DNA from: Heterodontus francisci
Lineage: Eukaryota
Direction of reading: 5' to 3'
Length of the DNA: 64,000 nt
NCBI RefSeq assembly: GCF_036365525.1
Contig: NC_090406.1
Location: 6,538,786 to 6,602,785, forward strand
Position 1 is the stretch's first letter. Every line of letters begins with the position of its first letter. Made by a program: the position numbers and the translations under genes. The notes under the pieces were generated by a model. That model had not been told where the DNA came from. It saw nothing but the letters and a program-made list of their open reading frames with translations, and searched no databases. Positions 50,216-62,664 of the stretch are shown one piece after another.

Positions 50216-51028
50216 TTATTTGCGTTCTCTAAACCATGCATGTCTTGTAACTTGGTTAGCTGTTGGACGCATCGGTGGACTGAAAGTTAACAATTTCTCT
50301 ATCAAAGACTGGCACTTCTCCTCTAGCCTAATCTCTTCTGGATAAATCACACCCATAAGCTGTTTCTCTGGTAACTTGCTAATGCTGGAATCATTGAACG
50401 GCATATACCCTGTCACTATCACATACAGGATGACCCCCATGCTCCAGATATCATATTTTTTGGGGTCGTAAGGGACACCCAGAAGAACCTCAGGAGGAGA
50501 ATAGGCTGCAGAGCCACAGTAGGTGGTGCTGAGCTCTGGATAGCCTCGGCTCTTCCTTCCAAACCCAAAATCTGCCAGCTTCACCTGCATCTGCTCTGTC
50601 AGTAGGATGTTCTCACATTTGAGGTCTCGATGGACAATGTCACGTTCATGGAGGTATTTGATGGCTTTGGTGACCTGAGAAAACAAGCACTTGGCTTCCT
50701 GGCATGAGACACAGGTCCTTTGTTGGATCAACTGTAGAAGATTTGTAGAGACCAGCTCCATGACAATGTAGACTTTCCCATTGCGAACCTCAATAAACTC
50801 GTAAACGTGGACAATATGAGGATGTTTGATCCCTCTCAAAATGGCCAACTCCCTCGGCAAGAACTTACTGGCGAAATCTTTTGGAACTTTCTTCCTATCG
50901 ACCACTTTGATTGCTACATTTTTGTTGTACTTTTTGGAAATGGCCTCTTTAACCTTGGAGTAGCTGCCCTCTCCTATAGTTTTCCCCAGTTTATAACCTA
51001 ACTGTGCTAGTAGTTTGCTCCCCGACAT
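50216..51028 (-). CDS. TSSK6: Testis-specific Ser/Thr kinase 6-like, copy A (more diverged), single exon, 270 aa
   Basis: Intact kinase motifs [47 protein letters not shown]-terminus MSG..L..LGYKLG typical of TSSK6; synteny with GATAD2A. Confidence 0.93.
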
Positions 51029-51148
51029 GTTACACGGCCATCTTGTTAAGGCATTACCCTGATGAGCGAACTTGTCCTCTCAATGCATCTGCTGTAATAA
51101 TTTGCAGTTGTGAAGTCTCCCTTGTGTCACACCCCTACCCCATCACCA

Positions 51149-51154
51149 TTTATA
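51149..51154 (-). promoter_or_regulatory. TATA box of TSSK6 copy A
   Basis: catgtcTATAAAtgg on the minus strand ~120 nt upstream of the ATG; the same 15-mer lies upstream of copy B. Confidence 0.7.
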
Positions 51155-51456
51155 GACATGTGCCTAGAAATGCTTTCAAAAATATTGATTGCATTAACTT
51201 TGCAGTGAAATATAAATTGATTTGCCACTTCCAGCCATCAACCAGACTCCCTTCACCCGTGCTTTCCAAAATCGCCAACTCTTTGTGACCTCAAAGGAAT
51301 GCACTCCATTCACTCCAAGACACAAACAAGTTCGCTTTTGCTTCAAGGGGGGGAAAAAAGTAAGGGATTCATCTGCAATACTCATGCTAAAAATAGAATA
51401 TGTAATAGGTAAATGTGACGTGTTTGTTTCTGCATTTCACTGGTGGGGGTGACCAC

Positions 51457-58559: not shown

Positions 58560-59615
58560 TACCTGGACTACTGTGTACAATTTTGGGTTTCTTACCTAAG
58601 GAAGCATATACTTTCCTCAGAGGAGGTGCAACAAAGGTTCACTAGATTGATTCCTGGGATGAGAGGGCTCGCCTATGAGAAGAGATTATCACAGAACTCA
58701 CAGAATTGTTGTAGTGCAGAAGGAGGCCATTTGGCCCATTGTGTCTGCACCAGCTCTCCTAATGAGCATACCACCTCGTGCCACTCCCCTGCCTTCTCCC
58801 TGTAACCCTGCACATTCTTCCTTTTCATATAACTGTCTAATTCCCTCTTGAATGCTTTAATTGAACCTGCCTCCACCACACAGAGTGCATTCCAGACCTT
58901 AACCACTCGCTGCCTGAAAAAGTTTTTCCCCATGTCGCTTTTGCTTCTTTTACCAATTACTTTAAATTTGTGCCCCCTCATTCTCGATCGTTTCATGAGT
59001 GGGAACAGTTTCTCTCTATCTACTCTGTCCAGACCCCTCATGATTTTGAATACCTCTATCAAATCTCCTTTCAGCCTTCTCTTCTCCAAGGAAAACAGTC
59101 CCAACTTCTCCAATCTATCTTCATAACTGAACTTCCTCATCCCTGGAACCATTCTCGTGAATCTTCCCTGCACCCTCTCTAACACCTTTTATATAAAGCT
59201 TGGTGCCCAGAACTGGATGCATTACTCCAACTGAGGCCGAATGGGCCTATATTCTCTGGAGTTTAGAAAAATAAGAGGTGATCTCATTGAAACATATAAA
59301 TATATTAGAGGGCTTGACAGGATAGATGCTGGGTGATTGTTTCCCTTGGCTGGAGAGTTTAGAACTAGGGGTCATAGTTTCAGGATAAAGGGTTAACCAT
59401 TTGGGACTGAGATGAGGAGACATTTCTTCTCTGAGGGATGTGAATCTTTGGAATTGTCTAACTCAGAGAGCAGTGGATGCTCAGTCATTGAGTATATTCA
59501 AGATCGAGATCGATAGACTTTTGGGCACTAAAGGAGTCTACATCACGATCTTATTGAATGGTGGGGTGGGCTTGAGGGGCTGGGATGGCCTACTCCTCCC
59601 ATTTCTTATGTTCTT
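58560..59615 (+). mobile_element. CR1 3' fragment interrupted by an antisense CR1 (58690-59240, -)
   Basis: Minus ORF 58673-59185 (LERVQGRFTRMVPG...) nested in plus-strand CR1 sequence. Confidence 0.82.
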
Positions 59616-61851
59616 AAGTACTTCAGTAATGCAAGTTGCTCTTACCAACTTACGAATTTACATAGATAGCTTCTTGGGCTCAGTTGTGTCTGTTCCCCAC
59701 CCTGCTCCTCCCACCATAAGTGATTCGAACATCCTACTTTTCTTTAGGAGTTGACTCACACTGCCTTAGATGATATATTATGATATCAAAACCCAGTGGA
59801 ATTCCTGTGTGAGCTGAACCTGTTGTAAGTCAAGCACATTTCCTAACTCAGTCTGCCTGCAGAGAGAGTAAATACGAGATAAGGAGAGGCCTGGCTTGAA
59901 TTGTTAAACTGAGTTCCAGTTATCTGCGTAACGACAGAAAAGTAACGATGAAGCTGCATTATCGCACATCAATGAGTTGCTCTGTTTGACTTAGAGAAAT
60001 TAATCTTCTCTGCATTCTGCTCTATCGCAGGACCTCCTCTCCCTGTAGGTTCCTATTTTTCAAAACCTTTTTTGACCTGTGTCTGAGCAGAGCTCTGCCT
60101 GCAAAAACCAGACTGCCTTTTTGGAATCTATGTCTCTTACAATTATCACTGGCTTCACAGGCAGACTGAGCTCAAAGCGTTTTCCAACAGATTGGGTGAA
60201 AGATGTCTTGCTAATAACCCAGATTACATCAGGCAGGAAAATGGAGTTAAGACACAGATCAACCATGATCTAACTGAATAGTGGAACAGGCTTGAGGGGC
60301 TGAATGGCCTCCTATTCCTATGTTCTTTCCTAAGTTAATAAATCGTTAATTAGTTGCTGGGGAAATTAATTTCCATTTGGCATATTAACTGCCTTTTGTG
60401 CTCCTCATTTTTATTTTAAAAAGTGAGAATGCATGTTGCTCTAACCAACATTAAAAGAAATGATTTTCCTAAAATCCTTTCAGTTGAAAGATGGTCAAAA
60501 AGTCCTGAAAGGTGACATCAAGTTATTGGAAATTTGGATTGCTCGATGGTGGGAAATTGCCCAGTTCCTAATGGAGATCAAAGATTGCCAGTATCATTTC
60601 AGTTAATACAGTTTGATCAATTAACACCATTGGCGTTTAATTAAGAGCGAGTTTTCTTTTGTAATTCTTTCCTTTCCTTGCCTGAAAACAATAGGTTCGA
60701 TCAGCACCCCATCCACCACCTTAACATTCACTTCCTCCACCAGCAGTGCACAGTGGCAGCAGTGTGCACCATCTATAAGATGCACTGCAGCAACTCGCCA
60801 AGGCTTCTTCCACAGCACCTTCCAAACCCGTGACCTCTGCCACCTCCAGCCACATTGGGAACACCACCATCTGCAAGTTCCTCTCCAAGCCACTCACCAT
60901 CCTGACTTGGAAATACATCAGCCGTTCCTGTCACTTGATCAAAATCCTGGGACTCCTTACATATAAGCACCGTGGCTGTACCTATACCACAAGGACTGCA
61001 GTGGTTTGAGAAGGCGGCTCACCACCATATTCTCAAGGGAAATTAGGAACAGGCATTAAATGCTGGCATTGCCAACAACACCCACATCCAGTGAATAAAA
61101 AAATTAAAAATGGGGGTAAACCTATAATCTGGCATTCTCACTGGCAGCTACAGTGACGGGGAGTACGGGTTGGCGAAAAGGAGCAAAGTGCTCTATATCT
61201 GACCTGGGTGCTTCCTATGACCAGGGTCTGTTCCCCCACCCAGGTGCAATTACCTGTAACTCTTGCTGCAGTACAGTTTCATTAGCATTGAACATAGGGA
61301 CTGGAGTAGGCCATTCAGCCCCTCTAGTCTGTTGTGCCATCCAAAGCCCATCTTCTCCTGAAATACATCTATACTATTCACCTCAACTACTCCCTATGGT
61401 AGAAAGTTCCACGTTCTCACCACACTCTGGATAAAGAAGTTTCTCCTGAATTCCCCATTGGATTTATTAGCGATTATCTTATATTTATGATGCCTAATTC
61501 TGGTGTCGCCCACAAGTGGAAAAATCTTCTCTATGCCTAACCTATCGAATTCCTTCATAATCTTCAGCTTCAGATATTTAAAGTCTAATAAGGCTGGTCT
61601 CACAAAATTGCCAAGTACCTTAGTGAAGATGGCAGTAGTATCTTATGCGACAACTCCAAAATTGATCTTCCTTCAGGCATGATTCACCGCTTGGAATCTC
61701 CTTCGATCAAAGTTTGAACAGTGACTAAAAAAAAAAAGCTTGTGCATTTTCAAAGCTTTAATTGCGAATGGTTTTAGAAAGGTCGTTACACTCATTACGG
61801 TAACACTAAGAAGAAACTAATGTTCTTGCCCTGTAGGGTTTTTGGGTTATT

Positions 61852-62664
61852 CTACTTGTTGTCTCTAAGCCATGCGTGCTTGACAATCTGGTTGGCAGCT
61901 GGTCGTCCTGAGGGGCAGAACTGCAACAGCTCCCTAATCAAACTTTGGCATTTCTCCTCCAGTTGGATGCTCTCTGGGTAGACCACTCCTTTCTGCTGGC
62001 TCTTGGGTAACTTGCTGATGTTTGAATCATCAAAGGGCATGCACCCAGTCACTATCACATAAAGAATGATCCCCAGACTCCAAATATCATACTTTTTGGG
62101 GTCATAGGGGACCCCCATTAGGACCTCAGGGGGGGCATAGGCAGCAGAGCCACAGTAAGTGCTGCTGAGGTCAGGATAACCATGAATCTTCTTGCCAAAT
62201 CCAAAATCGGTGATCTTTACCTGCATTTCTTCAGTCAACAGGATGTTTTCACACTTGAGGTCCCGGTGGACAATGTCGTGCTCGTGAAGATATTTGACAG
62301 CGCAGGCGATCTGGGAAAACAAATGACGGGCTTCATTGCATGGGATGTGGCCCCTGTGTTGAATCAACTGAAGAAGATCTGTTGCTGCCTGCTCCATAAC
62401 AATGTAAAGCTTCCCATTGCAAACCTCAATGAATTCATAAACCTGAACAATATGAGGGTGTTTGATTCCCCTCAAGATGGCCAACTCCCTTGGCAGAAAC
62501 TTATTGACAAAGTCTGGTGGAGCCTTCTTCCTGTCTACTACCTTTATGGCAACATTCTCCCTGTATTTCTTGGAACTACCTACTTTCACTTTGGAATAAC
62601 TGCCCTCACCAATTGTTTTCCCTAGTTTATAACCTAACTCTGCCAGAAATGTGTCTCCGGACAT
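61852..62664 (-). CDS. TSSK6: Testis-specific Ser/Thr kinase 6, copy B (closer to mammalian TSSK6), single exon, 270 aa
   Basis: [49 protein letters not shown] match recalled human TSSK6; catalytic motifs intact. Confidence 0.95.

Follow-up and report, generated by a model that had tools for sequence, protein, structure and literature searches.

In the present study, we analyzed a stretch of 64,000 nucleotides from Heterodontus francisci (contig NC_090406.1, positions 6,538,786 to 6,602,785; hereafter the window), which contains two intronless kinase genes of the TSSK6 subfamily, here named paralogs A and B. At the level of sequence, the pair is real, old, and functional, and represents a new paralog of a known kinase for which a concrete specificity hypothesis can be formulated. 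The favored interpretation, to which we assign a probability of about 0.5, is that A and B would be co-expressed spermatid kinases and that the substrate preference of A has been retuned.

Paralog A (50216..51028) and paralog B (61852..62664) are encoded on the minus strand by open reading frames (ORFs) which each run from ATG to stop over 270 codons, with 11,636 nt from start to start and 10,823 nt between the ORFs. The term intronless refers here to the coding ORF only and leaves room for introns in untranslated regions (UTRs). The two proteins could be aligned without gaps and differ at 68 of 270 residues (74.8% identity), whereas the nucleotide sequences differ at 212 of 813 positions, 128 of which are third codon positions. 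The initial annotation, made from the sequence alone, had described two intact intronless 270-residue kinases in the same orientation about 11 kb apart, with about 68 differences in an ungapped alignment (~75% identity), and these counts are correct. Amino acid differences are densest at residues 91–120 and 241–270. No sign of recent gene conversion between A and B was observed, the longest identical run being 16 nt, and tblastn detected no third TSSK6 copy in the window. An assembly duplicate was considered and rejected, as 26% of bases differ and each copy has its own orthologs in other species.

Both proteins match the Pkinase family (PF00069, E-values of 1e-66 and 2e-65) and show the hallmarks of the kinase domain (G-loop, beta3 Lys, alphaC Glu, HRD, DFG, and an APE-type motif). 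As previously noted, the catalytic motifs are retained in both copies: the G-loop, K41, E60, the activation-loop T169 before YCGS, PPE, D193, and R254 are all present. The predicted structure resembles SIK/MARK/AMPK folds. A and B are predicted to be catalytically intact Ser/Thr protein kinases related to the CAMK/AMPK group.

Both proteins have already been annotated automatically and are found in a public collection, in a main cluster of 32 members; the 15 members listed are named TSSK6 or TSSK6-like and come from sharks, rays, and Callorhinchus. By sequence and fold alike, the solved structures that match best are the mouse and bovine TSSK6 chains in the sperm doublet-microtubule structures 8IYJ and 8OTZ (template modeling score 0.89). 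The AlphaFold model of A has a mean confidence (pLDDT) of 79, with the activation loop and residues 215–229 below 50. In a 25-sequence tree which also included lamprey, TSSK3, TSSK1-like, and amphioxus sequences, but neither TSSK4 nor TSSK5, one clade with support of 99/99 united A and B with bony-vertebrate TSSK6. Identity to the hominid TSSK6 sequence is 65% for A and 72% for B, and both are short (~270 residues), intronless, and devoid of a C-terminal tail, as in the TSSK6 subfamily. The earlier assignment of A to TSSK6, and not to another TSSK subfamily, is supported by this clade and by TSSK6 being the top structural match.

Among the matches listed, both paralogs were detected in 9 of 15 other chondrichthyan genera (Chiloscyllium, Cetorhinus, Scyliorhinus, Amblyraja, Leucoraja, Hypanus, Hemitrygon, Narcine, and Callorhinchus), with consecutive accessions in eight of the nine; the remaining six genera have one copy each among these matches. 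The tandem order was seen directly in the window and is deduced elsewhere from consecutive accessions. In stingrays and mantas both paralogs have undergone extra change (90% identity to the window for B and 93% for A; P0003, P0135, P0136, P0132, P0133), and Mobula has only B among the matches listed.

A second tree comprised 46 sequences hand-picked from 178 proteins (12 A, 11 B, 22 bony vertebrates, and one lamprey), after exclusion of a fused model, a fragment, and an alternative model; the B models of Cetorhinus and Callorhinchus were first trimmed of their N-terminal extensions. The A and B clades received support of 100/100 and 100/97, respectively, and each contains a sequence from the chimaera Callorhinchus. 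The phylogeny thus places the duplication before the holocephalan–elasmobranch split, dated at 421 Ma (PMC3692497), that is, more than 400 Myr ago, in agreement with the old retained duplication proposed in the initial annotation. In the 25-sequence tree, a clade of A and B excluding bony TSSK6 was recovered with support of 76/74 (760 of 1000 bootstrap trees). Two alternatives, B with bony TSSK6 (110 of 1000 trees; P-value of the approximately unbiased [AU] test = 0.097) and A with bony TSSK6 (96 of 1000; P-value = 0.094), were not rejected. In the 46-sequence tree, the lamprey sequence was attached inside the bony clade, which points to an unreliable root. An origin of the duplication on the chondrichthyan stem is the most likely placement, favored here rather than shown.

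Comparison of A with B gave a dN of 0.16, a dS of 1.89, and a ratio of 0.084. ORF A differs from contigs of relatives by 49 and 57 bases, and all 22 of the 22 differences listed are synonymous. These values indicate purifying selection on A instead of a dN/dS near 1. The stem leading to A is longer (0.22–0.23) than that leading to B (0.10). In 43 alignment columns no residue is common to the 12 A and 11 B sequences; 16 of these columns are A-derived and 5 are B-derived (P-value = 0.027), and 22 could not be polarized. Relative-rate counts are higher for A with all 22 bony outgroups, although the P-value is below 0.05 in only 10 of them and these outgroups are not independent, whereas the lamprey outgroup gives 12 versus 12, that is, no asymmetry.

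Distances from the window follow a different pattern at each depth. Between the window and the chimaera, 39 residues differ in A and 10 in B; among three sharks the differences are 2, 2, and 4 in A and 7, 5, and 6 in B; and for five batoid genera they are 17–20 in A and 11–27 in B. Identity of A among sharks is 98.5–99.3%, and its frame and motifs are intact in 12 of 12 A sequences. The changes in A thus occurred early, and A has since been as constrained as B; the asymmetry is real, but episodic and modest. The asymmetric divergence noted initially is therefore upheld as an excess of fixed changes on A but not as an ongoing process, and it assumes that bony TSSK6 is the outgroup of A and B. 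All five motifs first reported for B are present in B and in the hominid TSSK6 sequence, and all five reported for A are present in A and in 8–11 of 12 A orthologs but in none of the 22 bony-vertebrate sequences. On the other hand, B is not simply ancestral, having fixed changes of its own such as A29G in strand beta2: Gly29 occurs in 11 of 11 B sequences, whereas Ala is found in A and in 139 of 151 non-chondrichthyan TSSK6 sequences (a set which includes some unnamed matches).

Immediately upstream of each ORF we found a conserved block of about 140 nt on the minus strand, at 51040..51181 for A, where it constitutes a putative core promoter and 5' UTR, and at 62691..62826 for B. Each block contains a TATAAA (51154-51149 and 62797-62792), located 126 nt before the start in A and 133 nt before it in B. 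Their local alignment score is 82, compared with a maximum of 30 in 1000 shuffles; beyond the block, scores are only 14 for the adjoining 200 nt upstream and 22 for 200 nt downstream. The block has been retained between the paralogs though their synonymous sites are near saturation. Gene models of Cetorhinus, Callorhinchus, and Narcine have extensions or linkers in which the B block is translated in three different frames, which indicates that the block is an old, noncoding element. That it is still alignable between A and B suggests that the duplication took the promoter along and that coregulation may have continued.

A candidate polyadenylation signal, ATTAAA, lies 90 nt after the B stop (61757..61762, minus strand; a motif match only), and neither AATAAA nor ATTAAA was found within 600 nt after A. 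Of seven sequencing runs, all tentatively taken to be RNA, four gave small word shares of 0.06–0.11. In one run of a relative (X2), likewise only tentatively RNA and with no tissue given, separate contigs span ORF A and ORF B over their full lengths. The contigs of this run show little or no cover of the unique flanks and the B contig ends near the ATTAAA; this was not used as evidence, since contigs do not reveal the ends or levels of RNA and diverged flanks could have the same effect. In another run (X1), which may be DNA, the A contig extends over the TATA box. No joint between A and B was seen among the 15 listed of 626.

The fixed changes of A include several positions that may bear on substrate recognition. 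Paralog A has N96, S177, Y208, and N212, whereas B has D96, A177, C208, and D212, as do most bony-vertebrate TSSK6 proteins. N96 is present in 12 of 12 A sequences, and D96 in 11 of 11 B, 134 of 151 non-chondrichthyan, and 11 of 11 more distant TSSK sequences. In a HMMER alignment D96 aligns with the post-hinge Glu of MARK4, which by kinase numbering would be Glu127 of PKA. The latter residue is the source of P-3 Arg specificity (PMC3219626). S177 is likewise found in all 12 A sequences, versus A177 in 11 of 11 B and 129 of 151 non-chondrichthyan sequences. Residue 177 directly follows the conserved Tyr of the P+1 loop and, judging from the kinase fold, presumably corresponds to Pfam position 164. 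Mutation of that position in Snf1 changed peptide preference by shifting the +4 preference (PMC7809594). Further C-lobe changes in A are C208Y, D212N (11 of 12 A sequences), K225M, and Q248T, the first three of which lie in the alphaF–alphaG region. Net charge (K+R-D-E) is +15 for A and +5 for B in the window, and ranges from +11 to +15 in three A proteins compared with +5 in three B proteins.

A possible scenario is as follows. An intronless TSSK6 gene and its promoter, adjoining GATAD2A, would have been duplicated in tandem at the DNA level before the chimaera/elasmobranch split, after which both copies, at the level of sequence, stayed catalytically intact and under purifying selection. The shared upstream block probably switches both genes on together in spermatids. 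B kept the usual TSSK6 substrate groove. A, in contrast, fixed D96N early, with predicted loss of the hinge acid for a P-3 arginine of the substrate, along with A177S in the +1/+4 pocket and C208Y, D212N, and K225M; its surface became more basic, and little has changed in it since. Most likely, the spermatid or sperm-tail proteins phosphorylated by A would therefore be a shifted set, and between them the two kinases may divide or extend the work of the single mammalian kinase.

Several observations weigh against this scenario. The residues typical of A are not exclusive to it, as N96 occurs in 2 of the 151 other sequences, S177 in 5, and N212 in 12, and A of Narcine keeps D212 and T152. Asn and Ser are mild replacements, and further published specificity positions (L98, E139, A175, V203, and DFG+1) are identical in A and B of the window. 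The TSSK6 hinge is one residue shorter than that of MARK4, so the equivalence of D96 depends on the HMMER alignment; the step from MARK4 to PKA numbering and the equation of residue 177 with Pfam 164 are presumed from the kinase fold. The clade of A and B has support of 76/74 with neither alternative topology rejected, and the relative-rate tests reach significance with only 10 of 22 nonindependent bony outgroups and are flat with lamprey.

The strongest competing explanation, a possible one to which we give less credence, is retention for dosage or expression level, according to which A and B would be biochemically nearly equivalent and kept for the dose of TSSK6 or for split timing or level, the changes in A being tolerated drift. 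Tssk6-null male mice are infertile and heterozygotes are subfertile (PMC13066092), and the latter makes sensitivity to dose plausible; the upstream block common to A and B, the recurrence of TSSK6 duplicates in other vertebrates, and the identity of catalytic residues in the two proteins all fit such an account. However, 43 columns have remained disjoint for more than 400 Myr, several of which are nearly invariant in other TSSK6 proteins (A48, D96, A177, and Q248), and A has hardly changed among sharks; both facts speak for selection on the new residues of A more than for interchangeability.

The two genes might instead divide their work by place, with one paralog docking on the sperm doublet microtubule or tail accessory columns and the other acting in the spermatid head or nucleus, in which case the fixed changes would alter docking surfaces; we consider this rather unlikely. 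In the mouse, TSSK6 undergoes T-loop autophosphorylation and depends on HSP90 and TSACC, and both chromatin remodeling and relocation of Izumo1 require it (PMC7401350). TSSK6 has also been found on the sperm doublet microtubule, to which it binds outside the seam (PMC13066092, PMC11779644), and where it is resolved with EFCAB3 and CFAP97D1 (8IYJ, 8OTZ). The mammalian function first cited for this gene, chromatin condensation in spermatids, is thus right as regards a chromatin role but too narrow, the protein being also a kinase on the sperm doublet microtubule. These two settings in one mammalian protein, the more basic surface of A, the concentration of differences at residues 91–120 and 241–270, and the presence of accessory columns in elasmobranch tails (PMC11856307) are consistent with a spatial division. 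On the other hand, nothing assigns either shark protein to a compartment. Retuned substrate preference remains favored over both the dosage or expression partition and the division of docking sites, although these readings overlap.

A third alternative concerns history instead of function: the duplication could have preceded the divergence of cartilaginous from bony vertebrates, one copy having been lost in the latter, and the additional distance of A from mammalian TSSK6 would then partly reflect tree shape and not faster change. B has a higher identity to coelacanth TSSK6 (76.1%) than to A (74.8%), Y208 is common to lamprey and A, and the bootstrap trees and AU values given above leave some weight to a union of B or A with the bony clade. 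Conversely, the best tree and most bootstrap trees join A and B, the best 120 matches of a search with A included no A-type sequence from a bony vertebrate, and the ~140-nt upstream blocks of the two paralogs can still be aligned with each other. An older duplication seems doubtful. We are similarly reserved about a bolder combination, in which A would be a separate TSSK6 paralog more than 420 Myr old, devoid of basophilic (P-3 Arg) preference and working in a different sperm compartment from B, so that the head and tail jobs of mammalian TSSK6 would be split between two genes, and in which the duplication might even have occurred before sharks and bony fishes separated, one copy having been lost in bony vertebrates. 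It is very improbable that A is a decaying copy or the pair an assembly artifact: no canonical poly(A) signal follows A within 600 nt, but the frame and motifs are intact in all A sequences, identity among sharks is 98.5–99.3%, listed differences are synonymous only, and A is 26% distant from B in nucleotides.

With regard to genomic context, an AG/GT-bounded exon encoding a GATA zinc finger and, after it, a coiled stretch (14386..14588, plus strand; PF00320, E-value = 1.3e-8) lies 36 kb from A and is convergent with the kinase pair. This exon probably belongs to a GATAD2 (p66)-like gene, either GATAD2A or GATAD2B; other exons of this gene were not located. This exon serves as a synteny marker. 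Gene lists for human and cattle place GATAD2A beside TSSK6 (PMC5545733, PMC4975395), and with the GATAD2-like exon nearby, the pair is probably located where TSSK6 lay ancestrally. The window ends 1.3 kb upstream of B, so that the NDUFA13 side lies beyond it. The domain scan covered 363 of 370 nonrepeat frames (seven low-complexity frames were dropped), 288 of 658 frames having been masked beforehand as self-repeats; apart from the kinases, it revealed retroelement domains and the GATA finger as the single host-gene exon. NCBIfam and Rfam scans gave nothing at cut-off.

The spacer between the two genes (51182..61756) is rich in interspersed repeats, and no Pfam family was found at cut-off among 90 frames from 40052-63731. 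Elsewhere, an open 456-residue reverse-transcriptase ORF of a long interspersed nuclear element (LINE) type lies at 20143-21513 on the minus strand; this element is possibly young, as it is CpG-rich (observed/expected ratio of 0.64). Many other LINE fragments occur across the window, and broken reverse-transcriptase and RNase H fragments of a long terminal repeat-type retroelement were found at 38762-39649 (plus strand). A GC-rich and C-rich low-complexity stretch with a 227-residue ORF (10667-11350, plus strand) had no family match in the overlapping frames scanned, with a CpG observed/expected ratio of 0.56 at 11001-12000. An 85-residue frame (47433-47687, minus strand) gave a subthreshold Pfam match to a viral glycoprotein family (E-value = 8.5e-5, 22.6 bits, cut-off 25) which is probably due to chance. 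A 44-bp minisatellite with 5.2 copies and 95% matches was located at 30665-30894, and 14686-14775 contains a 39-bp unit related to it.

Two database models join the kinases in one protein, A-then-B in Narcine (588 residues, misnamed as ribosomal S6 kinase-like) and B-then-A in Scyliorhinus (644 residues) (P0137, P0139). A genuine fused double kinase was rejected; these are probable gene-model artifacts, with opposite orders and unrelated linkers ending in translated upstream noncoding sequence. None of the 13 longer proteins listed was named from a chondrichthyan, a weak negative given that both fused models sit inside other clusters. Each half of the Narcine model is two residues off the A or B protein annotated on its own, so the genome may contain another copy of the pair.

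In the literature searched, which mostly lacked subscription journals, no publication describing a TSSK6 pair in chondrichthyans was found; this negative is weak. A Tssk tree including whale shark and thorny skate has been published (PMC8042308), a text search of PMC9876800 gave no match to TSSK, and a TSSK6-like gene described in a caecilian (PMC12141075) is unrelated. What is new is the depth and stability of the pair and its groove changes; as a phenomenon, a testis gene that was duplicated in tandem long ago and whose copies diverged unequally at first is ordinary. The 43 differences fixed over more than 400 Myr offer ready-made separation-of-function variants, for example at residues 96, 177, 208, 212, and 225. 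The pair also implies that TSSK6 diversified well before amniotes, where one review puts the origin of the family (PMC7401350), an origin which has already been disputed (PMC6905558, PMC8042308).

Duplication of TSSK6 alone is unremarkable, since extra TSSK6-like genes occur in pangolins (Manis), a turtle (Chelydra), sturgeons, and the characiform fish Salminus, some of them with adjacent accessions. The statement in the initial annotation that mammals have a single TSSK6 is accordingly not a rule. In Salminus brasiliensis, many divergent TSSK6-like models are distributed over several chromosomes, including some that have long tails and two kinase domains, and represent a teleost expansion (P0179, P0180, P0197, P0339-P0343). 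Those other duplicates which were compared are either younger than the shark pair (245/266, 272/273, and 252/270 identical residues) or divergent lineage-specific expansions, and none has been shown to span a whole class.

Compared with mammalian TSSK6 (SSTK), a TSSK-family member of the AMPK-related kinases in the CAMK group, the shark genes have the same kinase-domain-only architecture of ~270 residues, are similarly intronless, and have a GATAD2-like neighbor. They differ in being two long-lived paralogs instead of a single gene, and A carries N96, S177, Y208, N212, M225, and T248 where most TSSK6 proteins have D, A, C, D, K, and Q. The closest parallel is the mammalian TSSK1–TSSK2 pair, in which an intronless TSSK gene was likewise duplicated in tandem at the DNA level and both copies were kept (PMC6905558, PMC7401350). 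That pair belongs to another subfamily and lineage, and its divergence is described in the C-terminal tail, whereas the shark pair is tail-less, differs within the kinase domain itself, and is older.

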